Below are positions 1,499-59,536 of a DNA stretch of 64,000 nucleotides, in pieces. A program made the translations under genes and the position numbers. Within the stretch, counting starts at the first letter, position 1. Each line of letters begins with the position of its first letter. The DNA comes from Candidatus Diapherotrites archaeon LH_S9 (GTDB taxonomy: Archaea > B1Sed10-29 > WALL01 > JAGXON01). The stretch is from positions 1,597-65,596 of the forward strand of contig JAGXON010000004.1 of assembly GCA_023659865.1 (NCBI GenBank). The letters are read 5' to 3'. The notes under the pieces were generated by a model. The model made no database searches. It was not told the origin of the DNA and saw nothing but the letters and a program-made list of their open reading frames with translations.

Positions 1499-4201
1499 AT
1501 GTCATTTGAGTTATTGGAACCAAAAGTTAAAAGACTAATTGAAGAAAGGTTCGACCAACCAACAGAAGCCCAGAAAAAAGCAATACCAAAGATAACGGAA
1601 GGAAAAAACACGCTCCTGATAGCACCAACAGGCCTAGGAAAAACAGAGGCCGCAATACTCCCTGTTCTGTCGGAACTGGTTAATCAAGAGTCTGAACCCA
1701 TCCAAATGCTTTACATCACTCCGTTAAAGGCCTTGAACCGAGATCTCGTCGATAGGATAACCTCGTGGACGGAAGAGCTCGGCATAACTTGCGAAGTCCG
1801 GCACGGTGACACATCAAGATCGCAGAGATCAAAACAAGCAAAAAATCCGCCGCAGATACTTATTACGACACCTGAAACCCTTCAGAACATACTGCCCGCA
1901 AAAAAGATGGGAAAACACCTCTCGAACGTTTCAAAAGTAGTTGTCGACGAGATACACGAACTTGCAGAAAGCAAAAGAGGTTTGCAGCTAAGCATAGCTC
2001 TAGAAAGACTGCAAAAAAGAGCGCAAGAAGTTCAAAGAATTGGTTTGAGCGCCACGGTTGGAACCCCGGACGAGACAGCCAAGTTCCTCGCAGGAACAGA
2101 CCGAGACTACAAAGTAGTAGACGTTACATTCGCCAGAGAGATTGATCTATCCGTGGAAAGTCCTTCAGCCCAGGAACAGGACCGGAAGGACTCAAAAAAA
2201 CTTCATTTAGATCCAGAAGCTATTTCAAGACTAAGAAGACTTCACGAACTCGTTGAAGAACACGAATCTGTCCTAACTTTTGTAAACACTCGGCAGATGG
2301 CGGAATTGCTTGGCTCCAGGTACTCTGCATGGGACTCTCAGCACGGTATAAAAGTCCATCACAGTTCCTTATCAAAAGACACGCGCGTACTAGCGGAAGA
2401 AGAATTCAAGGAAAAAAAGATAAAAGGCGTGATCTGCACTTCCAGCCTTGAACTAGGAATAGACATAGGGAGCATCGATTTAGTAGCTCAATACACTTCC
2501 CCAAGACAGGTGAACAGGCTTCTTCAGCGAGTTGGGAGATCAGGCCACGGCCTAGGACGCGTTCCAAAAGGGGTGGTAATCTGTTCGAACCCAGAGGATA
2601 TAGCTGAAGCTACAGTAGTGTGCAACAAAGGGAAAGAAAATGAGTTAGAAGCTATTGAACTCCGTAAACGAGCTTTGGACGTGCTAGCGCACCAGTTGGT
2701 CGGCATATCACTGGATTTAGGTAGAGTGACAAAAGACAGTGTTTACGAACTCGTGAAGAAAGCTTACCCGTTCGCAGAATTAATCCGAAAGGACTTCGAT
2801 GACACTCTCGAGCAAATGGAGTCCGAAAGATTTGTCTGGATAGATGGAAACACTTACAGGAGAAGTAAAAAAGCTTTCAAGTACTACTACGGCTCCGTAT
2901 CAATGATTCCTGCAAAAGAAAAGTTCTTCGTCAACAGCACTTCTGGAGAAAGTGTTGGGACATTAGACGAAGCGTTCGTCGCAGAGTACTTGAGGCCCGG
3001 TAAGATCTTTATAACTAAGGGAAGGCCCTGGAAAGTCGTTGACATCCGGGAAAAGAAGGTACTGGTCGAGCCAAGCACAGACATATCTGCGGCGATCCCT
3101 GACTGGGCAGGAGAAGAGCTGCCAGTACCCTTTGATATTGCTCAGGAAGTAGGAGAACTCAGGAAAAAACTTGCTGAAGGAAAGAAAATTGATGAAAGCG
3201 TGCTTCAGCCAGACGCAGCAAGAAAACTGAAGGAATCAGTTGAAAAACAACTTGAGCACGGGTTCATGCCAGACCACGAGACTATCTTCCTCGAGACCTT
3301 TCAGAACACTGTTGTCATGCACGCGCACTTCGGCACCAAAACCAACATAACGCTAAGTAAACTGCTTTCATCGCTGCTTACGTCTTTCCTCGGACAAGCG
3401 ATAAGTGCGACCGCAGACCCCTACAGGATTATCTTCCAGTTTCCAGCTAAAACAAGGCCGGATCTGCTGAAAAAGCATTTGGAGGACCTCGAGCCCGATG
3501 CAGTCAGGCCAGTGCTCGACAGAACTCTTTCCAGAAGTTCTTTGTTCAAATGGAAGTTTTTACACGTCGCCAGACGATTCAGTTTGATTGGGAAAAAATC
3601 AAATTACAAGAAGTTCCGCATAAGATCGCTTATAAACGCTGTCATAGATTCACCGATACACAAAGAAACCCTGAACTCAATCTATCACCAGAAGATGAAC
3701 ATAGAGAAGACGAAAGAGATTTTGGAACGAATTCACGCACAAGAAATCAAGATAAAAGAAAAAAAGACCGCTCAACCAAGCACTTTTGCTTCTTTCTCTC
3801 GTAAAGGCAAGGACTTGTTCGTCCCGGAAAAGCCCACGGCCAAGATCCTTGAACTAGTGAAGAGCAGGATACTTGACAAGAAACAAGGATTCAAGTGCAT
3901 AAACTGCGGTCACAAGTGGTATAAGAAGTTGGAAGAGCTGGAGGACAAGGTTAAGTGCCCTGAATGCGGTGGGAAAATGGTCACTTTCCTTAAAGCAAGC
4001 AAAAAGAAGAAGGTAGCATCGCTCATCAAGTCCTACGGGAAGAGAGCTGTCTGGGCTCTTAATGCTCATGGAGTCGGTCCAGTAACTGCGACGAGATTGC
4101 TCAAGAACCTTCGGGAAGACGAAAAAGACTTTTTCAAGGACTTGGTTAAAGCCGAAAGGCAATACATAAAAACAAAGCATTACTGGAAGGATAAGGAATG
4201 A
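1499..4201 (+). CDS. lhr: Lhr-family SF2 helicase with C-terminal Cys4 zinc motif
   Basis: APTGLGKT, ITPLKALNRD, RHGDT, DEIHE, SLELGIDIG, QRVGRSGH; CINC...CPEC near the C-terminus; ATG at 1499. Confidence 0.93.
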   Translation: MSFELLEPKVKRLIEERFDQPTEAQKKAIPKITEGKNTLLIAPTGLGKTEAAILPVLSELVNQESEPIQMLYITPLKALNRDLVDRITSWTEELGITCEVRHGDTSRSQRSKQAKNPPQILITTPETLQNILPAKKMGKHLSNVSKVVVDEIHELAESKRGLQLSIALERLQKRAQEVQRIGLSATVGTPDETAKFLAGTDRDYKVVDVTFAREIDLSVESPSAQEQDRKDSKKLHLDPEAISRLRRLHELVEEHESVLTFVNTRQMAELLGSRYSAWDSQHGIKVHHSSLSKDTRVLAEEEFKEKKIKGVICTSSLELGIDIGSIDLVAQYTSPRQVNRLLQRVGRSGHGLGRVPKGVVICSNPEDIAEATVVCNKGKENELEAIELRKRALDVLAHQLVGISLDLGRVTKDSVYELVKKAYPFAELIRKDFDDTLEQMESERFVWIDGNTYRRSKKAFKYYYGSVSMIPAKEKFFVNSTSGESVGTLDEAFVAEYLRPGKIFITKGRPWKVVDIREKKVLVEPSTDISAAIPDWAGEELPVPFDIAQEVGELRKKLAEGKKIDESVLQPDAARKLKESVEKQLEHGFMPDHETIFLETFQNTVVMHAHFGTKTNITLSKLLSSLLTSFLGQAISATADPYRIIFQFPAKTRPDLLKKHLEDLEPDAVRPVLDRTLSRSSLFKWKFLHVARRFSLIGKKSNYKKFRIRSLINAVIDSPIHKETLNSIYHQKMNIEKTKEILERIHAQEIKIKEKKTAQPSTFASFSRKGKDLFVPEKPTAKILELVKSRILDKKQGFKCINCGHKWYKKLEELEDKVKCPECGGKMVTFLKASKKKKVASLIKSYGKRAVWALNAHGVGPVTATRLLKNLREDEKDFFKDLVKAERQYIKTKHYWKDKE

Positions 4202-15747: not shown

Positions 15748-16854
15748 ATGAAATACGATAAATTTGGACCACAAAAAGTAGTTCACGTTTACAACCCAAA
15801 AACAAACGTAAAAGGATTTGTAGTCATAGACAACACAGCACTCGGCCCAGGGAAAGGCGGGATAAGAATGACGCCGAGCGTAACTCCAGACGAAGTCTTT
15901 AGATTAGCAAGAACAATGACATGGAAATGCGCTCTAGCAGAACTTCCTTTTGGAGGAGCAAAATCAGGAATAGTTGCAAACGACCGAGAACTTACCTTGG
16001 ACCGGAAAGAAAAAATAGTCAGAGAATTCTCAAAAGAACTTAAGAACATCGTTCCAGAAGAATACGTGGCAGCACCCGACATGAACATGGCAGGGCAAGA
16101 AATGAAATGGTTTGCAGAAGAAAACGGAAACATGAAAGCCTGCACAGGAAAACCAAAAGAAATGGGGGGCATACCACACGAACTAGGGAGCACGGGTCTA
16201 GGAGTATTCCACTCAGGAAAAATAGCACTGGAACACATGAACAGAGACATGAATGACGTGACTGTAGCCATAGAAGGATTCGGAAACGTCGGTCACTTCA
16301 CCGCAAAATTCTTTGAAGAAGCAGGAGCAAACGTTGTTGCAGCCTCGGACTCTAGCGGAGTAATCTACAACCCAGAAGGTCTTGAATACAACAAACTCAA
16401 GTCAACAAAAGACAATCAAGGCGCAGTAACCAAGCACCCGAGCGGAAAAGTGCTCGATAACCCGAAAATCTTCGAACTAGACGTCGACCTCCTGATTCCA
16501 GCAGCAATACCGAACGTGATAACCAGCAAAAACGTTGACAACGTTAAAGCCGACTTGATAGTTGAAGGGGCTAACCTGCCGATCCCCCCAGGAATTGAGA
16601 AAAAACTGCACGAAAAAAACGTGCTTGTAGTACCTGACTTCGTGGCTAACGCCGGCGGAGTAATCTCTTCTTACGTCGAGTACAAGGGCGGAGACGCAGA
16701 CGAAATGTTTGAAATGGTTCCAAGAAAAATCGAGAAGAACACACAACTAGTGCTCGAAAGATCTGAACGAACCGGCAACTACCCGAGAAAAGAAGCTCTT
16801 GAGATAGCTCAGGAAAGAGTACTAGAAAAATGCGATTTCTGCGGAGAAGACTAA
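15748..16854 (+). CDS. gdhA: Glu/Leu/Phe/Val dehydrogenase (glutamate dehydrogenase-like)
   Basis: GPGKGGIR, MTWK, FGGAKSG, APD, TGKP, GFGNVG, EGAN, PDFVANAGGV. Confidence 0.9.
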   Translation: MKYDKFGPQKVVHVYNPKTNVKGFVVIDNTALGPGKGGIRMTPSVTPDEVFRLARTMTWKCALAELPFGGAKSGIVANDRELTLDRKEKIVREFSKELKNIVPEEYVAAPDMNMAGQEMKWFAEENGNMKACTGKPKEMGGIPHELGSTGLGVFHSGKIALEHMNRDMNDVTVAIEGFGNVGHFTAKFFEEAGANVVAASDSSGVIYNPEGLEYNKLKSTKDNQGAVTKHPSGKVLDNPKIFELDVDLLIPAAIPNVITSKNVDNVKADLIVEGANLPIPPGIEKKLHEKNVLVVPDFVANAGGVISSYVEYKGGDADEMFEMVPRKIEKNTQLVLERSERTGNYPRKEALEIAQERVLEKCDFCGED

Positions 16855-17454
16855 CTAAATTTCTATTTCTTCTCCGGGCTTCAGAACAGTGTCGAACGGC
16901 AGTTCACTGTAATCGTATCTGCGGATCTGATCCAACGAATTGAAGTGCATTGGAATAACATGAGCGCCAATGTCTTCAGCAGCTTTTTCAGCGTCACCTA
17001 AACCCATTGTGTACTTCCCACCGATCGGAAGCAAGGCATAATCAACTTCTAGCTCTTTCATAAAAGGCAGTCGATCCGTGTCACCCGCATGATACACTTT
17101 TTTTCCCTCGGATTCGATCACGTAACCTACTCCTTTGCCCTGTGGATGGAAAGACTTGTTGATATTGTGTGCAGGAACCGTTCTAATTTTGACTGTTCCA
17201 AAACTCTTTTCGTCATTCTGCTTCATTCCAACTGCATCAAACTCTTTTGCATCACACTCAGGAGCAAGAACAACAGTATCTTCTGTCTTTATCTTGTTTA
17301 TCTTTTCTTTGTCCGCGTGATCGTGATGCCCGTGAGTCAAAAGCACTAAATCCGCTTTCTCACTGTAGTCACCGTCCCAGAAAGGATCTATGTAAACGGT
17401 CTTCCTGTTCGTCTTTACTCGAAAGCTCGCGTGACCAATCCACTTGATCTTCAT
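16855..17454 (-). CDS. MBL-fold metallo-hydrolase (UPF0173/UlaG-like)
   Basis: GHASF, THGHHDH, YHAGDT, LPIGG, PMH. Confidence 0.88.
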   Translation of the reverse strand: MKIKWIGHASFRVKTNRKTVYIDPFWDGDYSEKADLVLLTHGHHDHADKEKINKIKTEDTVVLAPECDAKEFDAVGMKQNDEKSFGTVKIRTVPAHNINKSFHPQGKGVGYVIESEGKKVYHAGDTDRLPFMKELEVDYALLPIGGKYTMGLGDAEKAAEDIGAHVIPMHFNSLDQIRRYDYSELPFDTVLKPGEEIEI

Positions 17455-49032: not shown

Positions 49033-50262
49033 TTGGATAATGGGGGAATACTATTGAGTGACGATATTTTTGAGACAGAGGTTACAAGGGAGACCATTTT
49101 TGAGGACAGAGACGTACTAAGCCCTCACTACATACCCGACAAACTACCTCACCGAGAAAAACAGATAGAAAGAATAATGGAAATACTTGCGCCAGCACTG
49201 TCGCACAAGAGGCCTAGTAACTTGTTCATTTACGGAAAAACAGGTTCTGGTAAAACAGTTTGCAGTAAAAGAGTTCTGCAAAAACTTAACTCGGTTAAAG
49301 AAAAGTACGATGCAGACGTGGAAGACGTTTACACCAACTGCCGAGTTCACAACACCAGGTACCAGGTGTTCACAAAAACTGCTGAAGCAGTGTTCCCGGA
49401 CGAGGACTTCCGAGGCTATTCCTCAACGCACCTGTACGACAAGATGCTTGACTACATCGAGGACAAGAACCTCACCTTCATATTCGTTCTGGACGAACTT
49501 GACAAAGTCAAAGACCTCGACGACCTCATCTACACTTTGACCAGAGCTAACGATGACCTGAACCAAGGAAGAGTAGTGATAATCGGGATTTCGAACAGAG
49601 TCACGTTCAAGGAAAAACTTGACCCGAGAAGCAAAAGCACTTTATGTCAAGAAGAAATGGTTTTCCCACCGTACAACGCGGAAGAACTTCACTCAATCCT
49701 CGAAGAAAGAGCTGAAGAAGGATTCAAACAAGGAATGTTCAAAGACTCAGCCATAGCTTCTGCATCAGCTTTCGCAGCTAACGAGTCAGGCGACGCCAGG
49801 TACGCTCTAAAGCTGTTGATTAAAGCAGGTGAAATAGCTGACAAGAAAGCTGAGCCAGTGACCGACGATCACGTTCAGGAAGCTCGTAGCGCAGTAGAAA
49901 AAGAAATCGTTTTCGACTTGATCGAATCACTTCCCGAGCACCAGGGAATCGTTTTGCAGGCCGTGGCCTCTCTTTCCAAGGAGGGCGGTAAGTACTCGAA
50001 GCTCGTTAAAACTGACGAGGAGGATGCGGACAAAGTTCTTTTTTCAGGAGAAGTCTACGATCGTTACGATAAACTGTGCAGGGACTGGAGCAAAAAGCCT
50101 CGTAGCTCAAGATGGTTCAGAGAGTACTTGAATGAACTGGAAATGCTTGGATTGATAACAACCAACATCTCAGGCAAAGGCGTTCGAGGCAACACTAGAC
50201 TCATCAGATTGTCTTTTCCTCCGGACGAGGTAAAAGAAGCCGTGGAAGAAAAGTTCAAGTGA
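49033..50262 (+). CDS. cdc6: Orc1/Cdc6 replication initiator
   Basis: LPHRE, GKTGSGKT, LDELD, LDPRSKS, FPPYNAEEL, GDAR, C-terminal wHTH with GVRGNTR. Confidence 0.96.
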   Translation: MDNGGILLSDDIFETEVTRETIFEDRDVLSPHYIPDKLPHREKQIERIMEILAPALSHKRPSNLFIYGKTGSGKTVCSKRVLQKLNSVKEKYDADVEDVYTNCRVHNTRYQVFTKTAEAVFPDEDFRGYSSTHLYDKMLDYIEDKNLTFIFVLDELDKVKDLDDLIYTLTRANDDLNQGRVVIIGISNRVTFKEKLDPRSKSTLCQEEMVFPPYNAEELHSILEERAEEGFKQGMFKDSAIASASAFAANESGDARYALKLLIKAGEIADKKAEPVTDDHVQEARSAVEKEIVFDLIESLPEHQGIVLQAVASLSKEGGKYSKLVKTDEEDADKVLFSGEVYDRYDKLCRDWSKKPRSSRWFREYLNELEMLGLITTNISGKGVRGNTRLIRLSFPPDEVKEAVEEKFK

Positions 50263-51604: not shown

Positions 51605-52696
51605 TCAGCTTAGTTTCTCTTTCTTTATCTGTTCCTTTAATTGTTTTTTAAGGACGCTCACGTAGTTCTCGAGCAAGGTGCTTTTCATTCCTCCAGGCAG
51701 TTTATGGAGAGGTTCATCGATTTCATCAATTTTTTTCATGTACTTCTTTTCTCTTTCTTTCATTTGTTTTTTCCAATCTTCTTTTTTAGATAATCTTCCC
51801 GCCTCTTTTTTGATGAAATCCTGGAACTCTGGGTCTCGCTCAATAACTTCCTCCCAAACTTCTTTCAATTGTATTACTGCTGCTCTTCCGCCTCCTCCTC
51901 TTCCGTACTTCTTAAGCAATTTCCTTTCCTTTTTCCTAAGTTTCTTCAATTCTTTCTCAGTCAATTCATGCTTGGTCTCCCCAATCTCTTTCTCCGTGCT
52001 TTTCTTCACGATCAAGCCAACAATTACTGCAGCAAAAAGCGCTAGAAGGATGCCAGCTCCAATCAAAGGCCACTGATACTTCCGGTAAAACGGAACCATG
52101 TAACTCGTGGTCAGGGTCTGAATGTTCTTGTTGTCTCCAGGGTCTTTAGCCACGATTTTTAGTTGGTTTTCTCCTTCTTTTAACTCGTAGTTGAATGTGA
52201 AGCTCCCGTCTTCATCAGCCTTGCCAAGTTCTTTTTCGTTCACAAGGATGGTTGTCCGGCATTTTTTGGATTGATTGCACTCAATCGCAGGGTCCGTCCG
52301 GCCGCTGATTTCTATTATTTTCTGATTGTTCTCGTCTGGAATAGGGTCCGGCTCTAGTTGTGTAGTGTTGTCCCAGGACACGACTTTAAAGGTGTTCGGG
52401 AGATCGTAGCCTGACGGTAGGCTTCCCGTTATCCCCCATATATTTTTGCTTTTCTCTTCTTGGAGAACTAGGAGTTTTTGGGAACTAGGAGTTAAATTGA
52501 ATTCTTTTTCATGGGTTTTAGCGTTTATAGTGACATTGAAAGCACTATGACCTCTTGCGCTAGTTTGAGTCCTGATGCTGTCAGGTCTTTGTCGTACGGT
52601 GATTGAAAAATCGTTTTTTTGGAGTGCGGGTTCTTGCACTGCTAGGGCTGAAGGTATTAGTATTAGTGCTGTGAGTAGTAGCCAGGCTTTTTTCAT
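51605..52696 (-). CDS. Type I membrane protein with extracellular Ig-like domain and charged cytoplasmic tail
   Basis: Signal peptide; ISGRTDP...DGSFTF..LKEGEN..IVAKDPGDN; TM; K/E-rich tail. Confidence 0.75.
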   Translation of the reverse strand: MKKAWLLLTALILIPSALAVQEPALQKNDFSITVRQRPDSIRTQTSARGHSAFNVTINAKTHEKEFNLTPSSQKLLVLQEEKSKNIWGITGSLPSGYDLPNTFKVVSWDNTTQLEPDPIPDENNQKIIEISGRTDPAIECNQSKKCRTTILVNEKELGKADEDGSFTFNYELKEGENQLKIVAKDPGDNKNIQTLTTSYMVPFYRKYQWPLIGAGILLALFAAVIVGLIVKKSTEKEIGETKHELTEKELKKLRKKERKLLKKYGRGGGGRAAVIQLKEVWEEVIERDPEFQDFIKKEAGRLSKKEDWKKQMKEREKKYMKKIDEIDEPLHKLPGGMKSTLLENYVSVLKKQLKEQIKKEKLS

Positions 52697-52722
52697 TGGT
52701 TCACTAAAAACAGTTGTTTGTT

Positions 52723-55323
52723 TTAAAGTTTTTTTCTGGTTATGGTGTAGAGGGTTGCGAGAAGTATTGTTAGTGTTGTTAGTAGGATTGTTGGTGTGTT
52801 TGTTTTTTGTTTTTGGGTTGTTTTGCCTGTGATGCTTGCTTTTTGTTTTTCTTGTTTTTGTTTTATTTGTTGTAGTTTTTGTATGGTTTTTTGTTTTGTT
52901 TTTGGTTTTTCTGTTTGTTTGGTGGTTTGTTTGTTTTCTTGTGTTTTTTCTTGTGTTGTTGTTTTGTTTTGTTTGGGTTTGTGGTTTGTTTGTTTTTGGG
53001 CTTCTTCACTTGTTGTTTTGTTTGGGTTTGTGTTTGTTGGTGTTCTGCTTGTGCTGCTGCTTGTGCTTGTGCCGCTTGTGCTGGTTGAGCTTGTAGTGGT
53101 TGTGCTTGTGCTGCTTGTGCTTGTGCTGTTGCTTTTGGTGCTTGTTTTTGTGTTGGTTTCAGTGTTTTCTTCTGTCTCTGTGTGTTTTTGTGGGGGTTTG
53201 ACTGGGTTGGTTAGTGGGATTTGTTTTTTGTTTTTTGTTTTGGTTGTGTGTTTTTTGTAGCATGGGAATACTATTTTGTTGGTTTTGGTGAATGTTCCGT
53301 TGTTTAGGCGTTTGTAGCAGGTGCCGCGTTTTGGCATGTGTTTGCATGGTCCTTTTGTAGAGGTTTTTGTGGTGAGTTTGTTGTTGTAGCATTGTTGTTT
53401 GGCTTCTGTTGCTGTGAGGTCGGTTGTGTATATTTCTCCGTATTTTTTTTGTTGTCTGTTGTCTGTCGCTCCTAATATTTCTGGCGGTCGATACGTCATA
53501 TTCAGGTTCCATTTGTATGTGGTTCCCGAGTTTTGGTCCCAGATGTCCCAGGTGTAGTCGTCGTAGTTCCCTGCTGAGATGTTCCAGAAGTATGCTGGTA
53601 GATCGTCTGGAGTTACTAGTTCTGTCCAGGGGTAGTCTTTCCATCCTTTTGCCCACATTGTGAGGTTGGTTCTTACTGTGTCTGGTTCTAGGTCTTCTTC
53701 GTTGAGGTTGCCTACTTCTGATATGATGTGGAATGTTGTTCCTGTTGTGATTGTGTCTGGTGCGTATACTCCGTGCCATAGCCATGTGTAGGTGGAGTTT
53801 ATGTACGCGCTTGTGTTGTCTTCTTCTCCGGAGTTGTCGTTGTCGTCTTGTGCTTTTATGTGTAGGGTTTGGTTTGTTTCGGGTATGTTTGTGAATGTTA
53901 GGATCCATTTCGAGTTGTTTTCTGTGCTTGTTAGGTTGGAGATGTTTATTGATTGCCAGTTGCTTTCGTCGTAGGCGTAGTCTACTTGTGCCATTGCTGA
54001 GTCGTTTGTGAAGGTGACTGTGATGTTGTCGTCGTAGTAGTAGTTGTCGTTTGGATTCGTGTCGTTTTCGTAGTTCCAGTTCCCGTACCCTCCGTTTTCT
54101 ATAAAGTTTTGAGTGTAGTTTGCGTCCAAAATCGTGATGTTTGGTCCAACAGAGTTTTCAATAAAGTACACCCATGCTTTATCCCCTATGTTTCCTGCTT
54201 TGTCTACTGCTTTAACTTTTGTGGTGTGGTTCCCGTCTCTAAGTGATACTGGGTATGGTTGTAGGCAGGGGAAATCACTGTTGTTTGCCCAGCTTCCGTT
54301 ATCTCTTTTTACTAGGTAGTATGCTAGGTCAGGATCGTTCCTACTTTTGTTACACTCTCCTCCTGCAAGAGAGTCAGTGCTATTCCAGTTAGGGTCAGCA
54401 CTTGAATATGTACTTCCATTCTCTGGATCGATGATTGTTACGTTTATAGTGCTGGAATCTTTTTCGTAGTTGTATGGTTTTGTTGTGTTGGTTTGGGGTT
54501 GTGTGGGGATGTCGTTTGTGGCTTTGAGTTTTATTGTTCCTGTTGGGTTTATTGTGATGTTTGTTGCTGTGCAGTTTCCGTTTGTGTAGTTTGTGTTGTT
54601 CCATGTGCTTTCGTTGTCTACTGTGTATTCGCATGATTTTATTCCGGTTTGTGGGTCTGTGGTTTTTGCTGTGATGTTTAGTTGGGGTGAGTGTTGTGGG
54701 TCTGGTAGTATCCAGGTGGTGTTGTTTTTGTAGCCTTCTGAGAATTGTATGTTTTGGAATTGTGGTGGTGTTTCGTCTATTTGGAATTTTCTTGTTCTGT
54801 TTCCCCAGCCGTTTGTGTTGTTGCATGCTATATGGATTTCGTGTTCTTCTGGTGGGGTGTAGTCGATTGGGTTTGTTAGTTGGGTGGTGTTGCTTGTGTT
54901 TGTGTTTATTGTTCCTATTTCTGTCCAGTTGCCGTTGTTAACTTGGTATTGGCAGTAGGTTGTGTTTGAGTTGTCGTCTGTTGGTGTGAAGGTGAAGTTG
55001 GTGACGTTGCGGTACCATTGGTTTTTTGGGTGGTCTATGGTGATTGTTGGTGTTGGTGCGTTGATTGAGACGGTGATGTTGTCTATTAGTATTCTTCCTC
55101 CTTTTTTGTAGGTGTCTCCGCATTTTCCTTCTGTGTCGCAGGCTCTTGCGTATAGTGTGTGGTTTCCGTTGTTTAGTTGGGTGAAGTTGTGTGTTTTGTT
55201 TGTGGTGTTTTCCCAGGTTGTGGTGTCTTTTTTGGTTTGGTAGTGTTGTATGTCGTTTGCTGTTGAGTTGTATTTTATTTCGATCCATGTTTCATTGGTT
55301 TTGTAGTTGTTTGTTGGTGAGGT
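52723..55323 (-). pseudogene. C-terminal part of the split surface glycoprotein (Ig-like domains, S/T linker, TM anchor)
   Basis: Frame of ORF 52723..54171 continues through repeat copy 1; shares YFIENSVG with the upstream ORF; no signal peptide of its own. Confidence 0.7.
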
Positions 55324-56564
55324 CTTAGTACGTCTCTGTCCTCAAAAAACCAATGGTACCGCAACGTCACCAACTTCACCTTCACACCAACAGAGTTTTC
55401 AATAAAGTACACCCATGCTTTATCCCCTATGTTTCCTGCTTTGTCTACTGCTTTAACTTTTGTGGTGTGGTTCCCGTCTCTAAGTGATACTGGGTATGGT
55501 TGTAGGCAGGGGAAATCACTGTTGTTTGCCCAGCTTCCGTTATCTCTTTTTACTAGGTAGTATGCTAGGTCAGGATCGTTCCTACTTTTGTTACACTCTC
55601 CTCCTGCAAGAGAGTCAGTGCTATTCCAGTTAGGGTCAGCACTTGAATATGTACTTCCATTCTCTGGATCGATGATTGTTACGTTTATAGTGCTGGAATC
55701 TTTTTCGTAGTTGTATGGTTTTGTTGTGTTGGTTTGGGGTTGTGTGGGGATGTCGTTTGTGGCTTTGAGTTTTATTGTTCCTGTTGGGTTTATTGTGATG
55801 TTTGTTGCTGTGCAGTTTCCGTTTGTGTAGTTTGTGTTGTTCCATGTGCTTTCGTTGTCTACTGTGTATTCGCATGATTTTATTCCGGTTTGTGGGTCTG
55901 TGGTTTTTGCTGTGATGTTTAGTTGGGGTGAGTGTTGTGGGTCTGGTAGTATCCAGGTGGTGTTGTTTTTGTAGCCTTCTGAGAATTGTATGTTTTGGAA
56001 TTGTGGTGGTGTTTCGTCTATTTGGAATTTTCTTGTTCTGTTTCCCCAGCCGTTTGTGTTGTTGCATGCTATATGGATTTCGTGTTCTTCTGGTGGGGTG
56101 TAGTCGATTGGGTTTGTTAGTTGGGTGGTGTTGCTTGTGTTTGTGTTTATTGTTCCTATTTCTGTCCAGTTGCCGTTGTTAACTTGGTATTGGCAGTAGG
56201 TTGTGTTTGAGTTGTCGTCTGTTGGTGTGAAGGTGAAGTTGGTGACGTTGCGGTACCATTGGTTTTTTGGGTGGTCTATGGTGATTGTTGGTGTTGGTGC
56301 GTTGATTGAGACGGTGATGTTGTCTATTAGTATTCTTCCTCCTTTTTTGTAGGTGTCTCCGCATTTTCCTTCTGTGTCGCAGGCTCTTGCGTATAGTGTG
56401 TGGTTTCCGTTGTTTAGTTGGGTGAAGTTGTGTGTTTTGTTTGTGGTGTTTTCCCAGGTTGTGGTGTCTTTTTTGGTTTGGTAGTGTTGTATGTCGTTTG
56501 CTGTTGAGTTGTATTTTATTTCGATCCATGTTTCATTGGTTTTGTAGTTGTTTGTTGGTGAGGT
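54146..56564. repeat. Tandem duplication, 2 x 1178 bp with a 63-bp templated junction
   Basis: 54146-55323 = 55387-56564 (offset 1241); shadow ORFs in the two copies translate identically; no differences in the stretches compared by eye. Confidence 0.95.
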
Positions 56565-58622
56565 GATGTTTATGTCTGGTGCTTGTGTGTTTACTGTGAT
56601 TGTTATGTTTTTTTCGGGTCCTGTGTTTCCTGCTTTGTCTGTTGGTTTTGCGTGGATGGTGTATGTTCCGTCTGCGAGTGTTATGGTGTGTGTTCCGTTT
56701 CCTGTTGTTTCGTTTGCTGTGTTTTTTTGCCATTCTGAGTTGTTTATTTTGATTTCTGCGTAGTCTGGGTTTTCGTCGTTTATTGTGTAGTTTGTTTTTA
56801 TTGTGTTGGTTGTGTTGAATTTGGTTCCGTCTTTTGGTGCGGTTATGTTGATTGTTGGGGGTGTGAGGTCTACTTTTTGTTCTATTTTTGTTGTGTTGAA
56901 TGCGTAGATGAGTCCTCCTTGGGTTGTTGATATGTAGAGTTTGTTTTTGTTTATTATTGGTGTTTGTTGTGTCCATCCGTCTAGTGGGTGTTCCCAGAGG
57001 TTTTTCCCGCTGTTTTGGTTTATTGCTTGTAGTTTTCCTTGTCCGTTGGTTATGTAGATTAGTTGGTTTTTGATTTTTGGTGTGGATAGGATCCAGTTGT
57101 GGTTTCCGGTGTTTTCCTCGGTGTAGTTCCAGATTTGTTTGTGGGTTGTCATGTTGATGGCGTGGAGTTTTCCTCCGTTTTGGGTTGGGTTGCCTTTGGT
57201 TCCTATGTAGAGGGTGTTGTTGGTTATGGTTGGGTTTCCGAGGATTGATCCGGTTTTGTATTTCCATAGTTTTTTGCCGTTGGTTTTGTTGAATGCGTAT
57301 ACTCCGTCTGCGCATGCGATGATTGTGTTGTTCAGTACTATTGGTTTTGCGTCTATCCAGTTATAGTCTGTTTTTCCGTTCCAGATTGTTTCTAGTGTTG
57401 TGGCGTTTAGGGCGTGGATTTTGCTTCTTCTTCCTCCTACGTACACTATTCCGTTTTCTACTACGGCTTCTGAGTATCCTCTGATTCCTTTTCTTGTTTT
57501 TAGTTTTTCTCCGTTGGTTTTGTTTATTTTGTAGAATTTTGGTGCGGTTCTTGATGCGGTTTCAATGTATAGGTTGTCTCCGTTTATTGTGGGGCGTGTT
57601 TTTCCTTTTGAGAGGGTTGTGTTCCATAAGTATTTTTGGTTGGTTAGGTTTAGGGCGAATAGTATTCCGTCTGAGGTAGATTGGTATAGTACTCCTTCTT
57701 CTATCAACGGGTTGCCGTTTACTCCATCTGGTAAGTTGGTGGGCGCGCTTTTGTTCCATATGGTTTCTCCGTTGGTTTTGTTCAGGGCGTGTATGAGGTT
57801 GCTGTCTATTCTGGTTCCTACGTAGATTTTTTCTCCGTCGGACCCGAGATCGGGTTCTATTCTTCGTTTTATGTCTAGTTGTCTTCTCCATGTGATTGCG
57901 TCGCTTGATTCGTTGAGGGGTCGGGTCGTCGCGATTGCTATTGGCTGGCTTGTTTGTCCTCCTTCGTTGTCTATTATTCTTACAACGGCTCCGATTCCGT
58001 GACTGGAGTAGTCGGGTGTGGGGTTGTATTCGTGTGTTATTGTTGGTTCTGTGGTTGTTGTGGTGTTGTTTGGTGTTAGTTCCCATTTGTATTTGGTTAT
58101 GTTTCCGTCTGTGTCGTGTGAGTTGGTGGCGTTGAATAGGATTTTTTTCCAGGTTTTTTTGGTGGTTGTTATGTTTGGTATGGGTTTTATGTTTATGTTG
58201 TATGTTCTGTTTTCTGTGGTTTCGGTGGTTTGGTTTGTGTCGTGGCATTTGATGTTCCATTTTGTTGTGGTGTTTATTGTGGTGTTGTGGAAGATTTTGT
58301 TGTGTCCTTGTGTGGGGTTGGTTAGGGTTTTTTGGGTTTGTAGTGTGTTGTTGGTTTCGTTGGTTTGGAGTGTGCAGTTTTTGAGGGTTGTTTGGTTTGT
58401 TATGTTGAATGAGTATCTGGTTTGGTAGGTGTTGTTGTTTTTTAGCCATTGGTGGTTGATGTGTCTTGTGGTGTTGTTTTTTGGGTTTTTTAGGGTTATG
58501 TTGAGGTTGTTTGTGTTTGTTATTGTGTTTTTTGTGGTTTTTGCGGTTGCTGTTGCTGTTAGTGTTGTGAGAATGAGTACAACGGTTAGTACCAGGGTTT
58601 TCCCCCAGGACTTTTTCAGCAT
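55275..58622 (-). CDS. Surface glycoprotein N-terminal part: signal peptide, PKD domain, PQQ-like beta-propeller, Ig-like repeats
   Basis: FNATNSHDTDGNITKYKW (PKD), repeated (H/Y)ALN..TG...W (PQQ), DKAGN motifs; last ~35 aa derive from the junction. Confidence 0.85.
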   Translation of the reverse strand: MLKKSWGKTLVLTVVLILTTLTATATAKTTKNTITNTNNLNITLKNPKNNTTRHINHQWLKNNNTYQTRYSFNITNQTTLKNCTLQTNETNNTLQTQKTLTNPTQGHNKIFHNTTINTTTKWNIKCHDTNQTTETTENRTYNINIKPIPNITTTKKTWKKILFNATNSHDTDGNITKYKWELTPNNTTTTTEPTITHEYNPTPDYSSHGIGAVVRIIDNEGGQTSQPIAIATTRPLNESSDAITWRRQLDIKRRIEPDLGSDGEKIYVGTRIDSNLIHALNKTNGETIWNKSAPTNLPDGVNGNPLIEEGVLYQSTSDGILFALNLTNQKYLWNTTLSKGKTRPTINGDNLYIETASRTAPKFYKINKTNGEKLKTRKGIRGYSEAVVENGIVYVGGRRSKIHALNATTLETIWNGKTDYNWIDAKPIVLNNTIIACADGVYAFNKTNGKKLWKYKTGSILGNPTITNNTLYIGTKGNPTQNGGKLHAINMTTHKQIWNYTEENTGNHNWILSTPKIKNQLIYITNGQGKLQAINQNSGKNLWEHPLDGWTQQTPIINKNKLYISTTQGGLIYAFNTTKIEQKVDLTPPTINITAPKDGTKFNTTNTIKTNYTINDENPDYAEIKINNSEWQKNTANETTGNGTHTITLADGTYTIHAKPTDKAGNTGPEKNITITVNTQAPDINITSPTNNYKTNETWIEIKYNSTANDIQHYQTKKDTTTWENTTNKTHNFTQLNNGNHTLYARACDTEGKCGDTYKKGGRILIDNITVSINAPTPTITIDHPKNQWYRNVTNFTFTPTDDNSNTTYCQYQVNNGNWTEIGTINTNTSNTTQLTNPIDYTPPEEHEIHIACNNTNGWGNRTRKFQIDETPPQFQNIQFSEGYKNNTTWILPDPQHSPQLNITAKTTDPQTGIKSCEYTVDNESTWNNTNYTNGNCTATNITINPTGTIKLKATNDIPTQPQTNTTKPYNYEKDSSTINVTIIDPENGSTYSSADPNWNSTDSLAGGECNKSRNDPDLAYYLVKRDNGSWANNSDFPCLQPYPVSLRDGNHTTKVKAVDKAGNIGDKAWVYFIENSVGVKVKLVTLRYHWFFEDRDVLRPHQQTTTKPMKHGSK

Positions 58623-58720
58623 TTTTTCCCCCTCAACCTCATTTTTTTCCTTTAACCCTTATATGTGTTTATATTAGTTTAAAAACTTAGGGGGGAAATT
58701 AGAAACTGAAGAGTTACAAC

Positions 58721-59536
58721 TTAATTAGTTTCCCACACTGTTACGTTGGGGGGATCGATAGAATGTAGCGAACAAATGTAACACTCTTTGTTTAGGTCAC
58801 TAGAGAAGTTTAACCTTATCTTTTTTGGATCACTTATCTCATCAGCTAATCCAGATATATTTAACTCATTAACTCCTCCTTTAATACTTTTAATACTACT
58901 GTTTATTAGTATATCGCAATATTCTCCTTCGCAATATTCATCCGTAACATTAACACTTACGTTCATTCTATCAAACTGTGTTCCGAGTGGTATTGTGGAC
59001 GTGTTCTTAAACGTAAGGAGCCTATCACCTTCATAGGGATCTATTTCTCCTCCCCCACAGCTATATCTATCCGTTCCGCTTGCAGCGGTTAAAGTATAAT
59101 TATAGTAAATTGTTTCTGTTTCACCGTTCTCTAAAGGAGTGCCGTATCGGAACCAGGCGTTATCAGTACTGTTGTTCAAATAAGCGGTCCGGCCTCTGTT
59201 AGTTACTTTCAGCTCGAACTTCTGCTTACCGATCTCGCAGGAAGCAGAAGCAGGCTTCTCGCTTGTGGATTCGGTTCCGCCGTTCCGTTCAAGTTCTTCT
59301 CCAGAGTTAGTTAAAGAAATCGAGTCCGGAACAGTTTCACTCGTTCCATCATACCTGGAATCATAGCCGTTAAGTTCTATACCAGCTAAACTGCACTTGT
59401 GCTTATCTTCACTGATCTTCCCTCTTTCTTCGGCTGGGGTCATCATCTGGTTCGCGACCAACACGACAGCTACTGCAATCGCCAGTATAGCGGCCAGTAT
59501 CAACAAGTACTCGAGTGAGCCCTGTCCTTTTTCCAT
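58721..59536 (-). CDS. Class III signal peptide protein (archaeal type IV pilin-like)
   Basis: MEKG/QGSLEYLLILAAILAIAVAVVLV. Confidence 0.85.
   Translation of the reverse strand: MEKGQGSLEYLLILAAILAIAVAVVLVANQMMTPAEERGKISEDKHKCSLAGIELNGYDSRYDGTSETVPDSISLTNSGEELERNGGTESTSEKPASASCEIGKQKFELKVTNRGRTAYLNNSTDNAWFRYGTPLENGETETIYYNYTLTAASGTDRYSCGGGEIDPYEGDRLLTFKNTSTIPLGTQFDRMNVSVNVTDEYCEGEYCDILINSSIKSIKGGVNELNISGLADEISDPKKIRLNFSSDLNKECYICSLHSIDPPNVTVWETN

Follow-up and report, generated by a model that had tools for sequence, protein, structure and literature searches.

A tandem duplication with a mosaic junction in an archaeal surface-protein gene: amplification chimera or serial template switching in vivo?

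The stretch of DNA considered here, a window of 64,000 nt from contig JAGXON010000004.1 of Candidatus Diapherotrites archaeon LH_S9 (assembly GCA_023659865.1), contains a head-to-tail duplication within a minus-strand gene for a surface protein. The two copies (54146-55323 and 55387-56564) are 1178 nt long, 100% identical and repeated with a period of 1241 nt, and the filler between them consists wholly of templated pieces (Table 1). Comparison of the sequences supports a junction of four templates joined by three switches, each at a short overlap and with one donor lying within the gene for the initiator protein Cdc6/Orc1. We consider it somewhat probable that this junction is a chimera that arose in vitro and was carried into the contig. 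A genuine and very recent duplication in the living cell is a possible explanation, to which less credence is given.

The preliminary description of this DNA, made from the sequence alone, had identified 55324-55348 as the exact reverse complement of cdc6 positions 49097-49121, with 31 of 32 positions matching when extended to 49128, and 55343-55394 as the exact reverse complement of 54977-55028 inside the repeat. Sequence comparison agrees with both assignments. In the extended first piece (55317-55348 against 49097-49128), the sole mismatch is the T at 55323, where the complement of cdc6 has G; this T agrees with the repeat. The microhomology claimed for every joint was likewise found at all three, the first being imperfect, in that 6 shared nt are followed by a terminal mismatch. 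When the four templates are aligned under the junction, every base of 55295-55420 is accounted for. The overlaps of 6 nt (plus one mismatch), 6 nt and 8 nt connect segments that lie 6.2, 5.9 and 0.83 kb apart, respectively. Two of the three joints (1 and 3) are in inverted orientation, the middle one (joint 2) being direct. All three switches are confined to 77 nt, and the tracts copied between them would measure 25 nt and about 46 nt (46-52 nt with the overlap).

Table 1. Features of the duplication, its junction and donors, the affected genes and the fold-back structures of the assembly. Positions without a contig name refer to the 64,000-nt window.
Feature	Position	Strand	Size	Description
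Copy 1, exact direct repeat	54146..55323		1178 nt	Copy lying downstream as the minus-strand gene is read; base-for-base identical to 55387-56564
Copy 2, exact direct repeat	55387..56564		1178 nt	First copy read by the minus-strand gene
Filler between copies	55324..55386		63 nt	Wholly two templated pieces
Templated piece 1	55324..55348	+		Exact reverse complement of 49097-49121, Cdc6/Orc1 gene
Templated piece 2	55343..55394	+		Exact reverse complement of 54977-55028 (= 56218-56269 in the second copy)
Donor site, piece 1	49097..49128	+		Codons about 22-32 of the Cdc6/Orc1 open reading frame
Donor site, piece 2	54977..55028	+		Inside the repeat; same sequence at 56218-56269
Joint 1	55317..55323	+		GTGAGG (55317-55322) common to the repeat end and the complement of cdc6 49123-49128, then mismatched T
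Joint 2	55343..55348	+	6-nt overlap	CAAAAA, piece 1 / piece 2
Joint 3	55387..55394	+	8-nt overlap	CCAACAGA, piece 2 / repeat start
Surface-protein frame as assembled	55275..58622	-	1115 aa	Signal peptide, PKD (PKD-like match), PQQ-type beta-propeller, Big_13 immunoglobulin-like domain
Continuation frame	52723..55341	-	Open for 872 codons	No start codon before 54171; rest of the immunoglobulin-like region, Ser/Thr-rich stalk, C-terminal hydrophobic membrane anchor
Cdc6/Orc1 initiator gene	49033..50262	+	409 aa	Cdc6_C (1.6e-22), Cdc6_lid (2.2e-19), AAA domains (AAA_22)
Fold-back	C3 end to C23, both orientations, back to C3		Loop 1.3 kb	
Fold-back	C8 end to C4, both orientations, back to C8		Loop 6.0 kb	
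Fold-back	C5		5.7 kb	Inverted 55-mer ends
Inverted tip	C6 1-33		Distance 1.9 kb (1.85 kb)	Exact reverse complement of C6 1886-1918

Judged from the sequence, none of this is due to chance. By our own arithmetic, an exact 25-mer match is expected about 4e-6 times when 64 kb is compared with itself, and overlaps of at least 6, at least 6 and at least 8 nt have probabilities of roughly 7/4^6, 7/4^6 and 9/4^8 each. An all-against-all scan for exact repeats of at least 20 nt over the whole 670,822-nt assembly returned 207 direct and 145 inverted pairs, among which no second partner was listed for the cdc6 piece. The preliminary description had also proposed a search of the genome for other junctions with inverted templated inserts. 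Reading of the same list revealed no further internal site at which pieces from different sources abut, and three fold-back structures and one inverted contig tip were found.

The duplication shifts the reading frame (1241 mod 3 = 2) and truncates the open reading frame (ORF) of the surface protein, a consequence missed in the preliminary description. The ORF as assembled passes from copy 2 through the filler and into copy 1 out of frame, where it terminates 16 codons past the filler because the period is not a multiple of 3. Its minus-strand translation does read like Cdc6 through the filler (...YHWFFEDRDVLRPHQQ...), as had been claimed, and domain matches confirm the gene at 49033..50262 as Cdc6/Orc1. 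The frame shift separates the continuation frame from the N-terminal part of the protein. When one copy and the filler were deleted by script, a frame of 4659 nt, or 1552 codons, without a stop was obtained. The collapsed product has a complete layout, with a signal peptide, a beta-propeller, immunoglobulin (Ig)-like domains, a Ser/Thr-rich stalk and a C-terminal anchor. Since the collapsed frame is uninterrupted, the junction disrupts an otherwise intact gene.

Thr (17.7%) and Asn (12.6%) are abundant in the collapsed surface protein, and Met accounts for only 0.4%. G and T are so scarce on the coding strand that about 390 codons of copy 1 lack ATG, GTG or TTG. The continuation frame is thus hidden from lists of ORFs, as start codons are lacking across this region. 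Within the window, positions 53028-53139 hold degenerate periodic repeats of 9-27 nt, GCTTGTGCT-like on the plus strand, which encode the Ser/Thr-rich stalk.

The preliminary description placed emphasis on the initiator locus, and this part of its interpretation is not supported, whereas the three template switches with microhomology are. The role of cdc6 is incidental whether the junction arose in vitro or in vivo; the gene is simply a donor 6.2 kb away, and this distance falls in the range of less than 10 kb typical of either mechanism. As to a replication origin beside cdc6, the gap between the Cdc6/Orc1 gene and the ORF upstream of it is just 87 nt.

The broken frame also bears on the suggestion that the duplication is both real and useful, either as a reversible off switch or as a domain expansion read via programmed frameshifting, which we regard as very improbable. 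Long identical arms make tandem duplications intrinsically reversible by homologous recombination. In addition, both frames are open over 55275-55341, and the two parts of the protein would be connected by a -1 shift in this interval. However, on inspection the 22-codon overlap showed no slippery heptamer, and slippage by -1 on the T-run within the filler runs into a TGA at 55344-55342; programmed frameshifting over this region was rejected on these grounds. Further, the 21 codons contributed by the filler, nine of them Cdc6 residues, are accidental sequence. No relative with the same arrangement was found either, as only the window's own protein exceeds 28% identity among the 28 proteins that passed the E-value cut-off.

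These 28 homologues (E <= 0.001) were obtained among 7997 proteins scored, and the window's own protein was the only near-identical one. The best other homologue (P0002; 1556 aa, 28% identity) has a length near that of the collapsed 1552-aa product, yet it cannot confirm a single-copy architecture because its alignment extends only to about residue 945. At the DNA level, a search of 41 genomes, this assembly included, gave merely short weak matches in three others. No public sequencing runs were listed for window positions 52000-59000. Metagenome contigs scanned with the 1115-aa ORF gave 30 pattern stretches, none of which was confirmed by tblastn, and neither metagenome contigs nor genome contigs matched an exact 34-nt pattern drawn from the repeat's end; these scans may omit records that stem from the same genome or from one very near to it.

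An origin in vitro, the explanation we favour, would proceed as follows. A strand growing during whole-genome amplification, by phi29 multiple displacement amplification (MDA) or a similar low-temperature strand-displacing step, would lose its template at 55323 and be re-primed three times at overlaps of 6-8 nt on nearby displaced strands. The first switch would copy 25 nt from the opposite strand at cdc6, 6.2 kb off, and the second would copy 46-52 nt from the opposite strand at 55028-54977. The third would land on the original strand at 54146, 1178 nt behind the starting point. In an assembly graph with k = 55, this chimeric path would appear as a short edge from the end of 54146-55323 to its start, and the loop, walked once, would give copy, filler and copy. 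The genome itself would then hold one copy and an intact gene for the 1552-aa surface protein. We infer here that the source DNA was amplified, that few reads support the junction and that the assembler behaved as described.

The structure of the assembly is consistent with this sequence of events. Of the 35 tip matches listed, 27 are overlaps of exactly 55 nt between a contig tip and another contig, which indicates a de Bruijn graph with a final k of 55. In such a graph, a single-copy segment with a chimeric path from its end to its start and a tandem duplication with a unique filler would be the same object, namely one 1178-nt edge with a short loop edge. A single walk of the loop would produce copy-filler-copy in both cases, and only depth would discriminate between them. 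Neither templated piece (25-32 and 52 nt) reaches the length of k, so the graph would not prevent the loop. The 100% identity over 1178 nt fits an artefact because one graph edge walked twice must give identical copies. Also counted in favour of an artefact are the frame-breaking period, the intact collapsed ORF, the presence of fold-backs in the same assembly, and overlaps and distances within the MDA range.

It is least credible of all that the junction is purely computational, with no molecule ever having carried its sequence. In favour of such an error, the assembly derives from a graph in which many repeats are unresolved. However, about 116 consecutive 55-mers over 55270-55440 hold joint sequences found nowhere else in the assembly, and overlaps of 6-8 nt are far below the usual k and cannot be made by mis-joins in the graph. 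Reads with the junction sequence must therefore, it would seem, have existed.

The fold-back structures suggest that chimeras of an in-vitro kind are present in the data. The assembly comprises 670,822 nt in 38 contigs (denoted C), with 66% completeness, 0.07% contamination and three contigs longer than 100 kb. In our judgement, 66% completeness alongside contigs of more than 100 kb fits uneven amplification. The stems on C3 and C8 and the C4 loop carry single-copy housekeeping genes, including those for Topo VI A and B, ArcS-like, RaSEA, KsgA, L21e and HMG-CoA reductase and the AglB/STT3 glycosylation cluster, while no family was matched by the C23 ORFs scanned. Each stem is the only contig of at least 1 kb that ends in its 55-mer vertex. 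The ends of the loops have nothing in common past the 55-mer, and no transposase match was obtained in C6 1-1918. An insertion sequence element or a short inverted repeat as a natural cause of the fold-backs was rejected given the lack of a transposase match, the loop ends sharing only the 55-mer, and the one stem per vertex. It was also judged unlikely that a genome of roughly 1 Mb would contain real palindromes of several kb made up of Topo VI and glycosylation genes. We regard the fold-backs and the C6 tip as probable amplification chimeras of the inverted type, each lacking 1.3-6 kb of intervening sequence and formed where true coverage ends. They are evidence, though not proof, of well-covered in-vitro inverted chimeras in the read set.

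One of these structures offers two alternative gene adjacencies. On the minus strand of C8, positions 3010-3543 hold an ArcS-like DUF5591 ORF without a start, and either end of C4 continues this ORF in frame. The first option joins it to a RaSEA radical-SAM ORF (C4 1-765, minus strand; 245 + 170 aa), and the second to a 249-aa ORF (C4 5243-5989, plus strand; 239 + 170 aa) for which no family match was found even at E <= 5. A RaSEA-ArcS fusion would be of interest if the adjacency is true.

Several small contigs of the assembly are variants of parts of larger ones, namely C12 in relation to C6 2159-4212, and C2, C9 and C28 in relation to C37 at 16.4-18.5 kb. They share many exact blocks of 20-170 nt split by differences, one of them within an S-layer-like frame of 834 codons. 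These contigs may represent strain variants or paralogues, and they may indicate that the data include more than one genotype.

A number of points weigh against the in-vitro origin. As stated, the source DNA is only inferred to have been amplified, and the variant contigs would accord better with a population sample than with a single amplified cell. It is uncommon for a very processive polymerase to switch three times within 77 nt and to copy tracts of only 25 and about 46 nt. Moreover, a proofreading polymerase such as phi29 is expected to remove a terminal mismatch such as the T at 55323. The junction also needed good coverage over about 171 nt to survive graph cleaning. Apparently genuine tandem duplications occur on C35 and C11 of the same assembly, which means that the lineage does duplicate. 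The middle joint, being direct and spanning less than 10 kb, belongs to the rarest class of MDA chimeras, with 11 of the 475 classified in the excerpted data of PMC1855051. In addition, a published long-read pipeline drops segments shorter than 50 nt, as described in excerpts of bioRxiv 10.1101/2022.08.13.503872, and it therefore gives no reference frequency for short multi-joint chimeras.

A genuine in-vivo duplication by serial microhomology-primed template switching, resembling microhomology-mediated break-induced replication (MMBIR) or fork stalling and template switching (FoSTeS), is a serious possibility, although one held with less confidence than an in-vitro origin. Both origins had been named in the preliminary description, which made its biological claim conditional on the junction being genomic. 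It would have been very recent and would have inactivated the surface gene. A broken or stalled 3' end at 55323 would have moved to the opposite strand at cdc6 for 25 nt and to the opposite strand at 55028 for about 46 nt, and would then have returned to the correct strand 1178 nt back, where synthesis became processive. The resulting loss of the gene by frame shift would concern the sequenced cell or the dominant genotype. Short successive tracts, microhomology at each joint, inverted inserts from nearby and an imperfect first overlap form the textbook signature of low processivity in MMBIR. The assembler kept the junction, so its support was sufficient, and a family-B replicative polymerase is encoded in the assembly. 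Other real-looking tandem duplications are found there as well, and simple microhomology-mediated tandem duplications are documented in archaea according to excerpts of PMC13167724.

On the other hand, a duplication in vivo would have destroyed a large and otherwise intact gene, and zero divergence over 1178 nt demands extreme recency. It is supported by no independent assembly or read, and the fold-back joints of the same assembly are best explained by in-vitro chimeras. Furthermore, the low-fidelity polymerase usually involved was not identified in the assembly, which is 66% complete. A search for family-A polymerase (PF00476) gave no matches there, with a control positive in 10 of 14 genomes, and the only match to a Y-family polymerase lay below the threshold.

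On C35, positions 16390-16933 contain a 269-nt tandem duplication with a period of 275 nt, in which 268 of 269 positions are identical and the copies are separated by the 6-nt spacer AAGAGA. It extends from the 3' end of a 419-codon open frame into the gene that follows, of which it takes in roughly the first 40 nt, leaves both genes intact and creates a hybrid frame of 107 codons. Unlike the surface-gene duplication, it looks genuine and recent. The duplication on C11 (13400-14950) is older; it is about 780 nt long, with periods of 775 and 784 nt, an exact 280-nt core and diverged flanks.

The origin of the junction has consequences for both annotation and biology. If it is an artefact, as we are inclined to believe, the public gene calls at this site, which give a truncated 1115-aa protein plus a separate C-terminal ORF, are probably in error. 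In that case the organism would most likely encode a single unbroken surface protein of 1552 aa, in which a beta-propeller and Ig-like domains are combined with a membrane anchor. The junction would then be a known kind of thing, and the fold-back contigs of this assembly would call for caution. Were the junction real, it would document serial template switching in archaea as a clean natural example of a class of rearrangement that is itself already known, and it would bear on the question of which archaeal polymerase primes from 6-8 nt of homology. We can only tentatively entertain such a natural three-step, MMBIR-like duplication in an uncultivated DPANN archaeon, caught with its copies still identical, in which the largest nearby surface protein is turned off and could be restored by recombination.

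Among known systems, end joining by polymerase theta likewise inserts short templated tracts in direct or inverted orientation and uses microhomology at every step. Its donors are usually no more than about 100 bp from the break. The donors of the junction differ in being 0.8-6 kb away, and the family-A polymerase expected of this route had no match in the 66%-complete assembly. FoSTeS/MMBIR has been described mainly in eukaryotes and in the amplification systems of Escherichia coli and Salmonella. These mechanisms were reportedly described by Lee, Carvalho and Lupski in 2007 and by Hastings and colleagues in 2009. The junction shares with them its serial switches at microhomology, three in number, its nearby templated inserts in either orientation and the form of a tandem duplication, with two copies in the contig. 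It differs from known cases in that a low-fidelity polymerase was not identified and in that the junction may not be present in the genome itself. A literature search at the level of listings and abstracts found no archaeal case of FoSTeS/MMBIR or of a complex templated junction, which is mainly what would make a real event notable.

The head-to-tail duplication of a unique segment is also a feature of simple microhomology-mediated tandem duplication (MTD), as given in the excerpted text of PMC13167724. The two copies of an MTD adjoin each other directly and have a single microhomology arm in common, whereas those of the surface gene are separated by a 63-nt mosaic filler from two other templates. 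The 269-nt duplication on C35 is closer to the MTD type than the surface-gene junction is.

Chimeras of phi29 MDA provide the remaining comparison; they form when a displaced 3' end primes anew on single strands close by. Excerpts of the study of Lasken and Stockwell (2007; PMC1855051) report 495 chimeras among uniquely mapped reads totalling 10.9 Mb; 475 of the chimeras were classified. Inverted chimeras made up 85%, and 337 of the 406 inverted ones link segments less than 10 kb apart. An overlap, 2-21 nt in length, is present at 93.5% of these nearby inverted joints; direct joints over less than 10 kb are rare in the same excerpts. Annealed 3' ends are stated there to be extendable 'even with some mismatches'. 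A review places the peak of overlap lengths at 7 nt, most being 5-8 nt, and the distance usually below 10 kb (PMC9984789). SPAdes assemblies of single-cell genomes amplified by MDA contain tens of potential misassemblies each, according to excerpts of PMC5794965. The surface-gene junction departs from this pattern in its three joints within 77 nt, its short tracts, its one direct joint of less than 10 kb and its terminal mismatch. It resembles phi29 MDA chimeras in its overlaps of 6, 6 and 8 nt, in having all segments less than 10 kb apart and in the inversion of two of three joints, and the fold-back contigs of the same assembly are of the 'inverted with intervening deletion' form.

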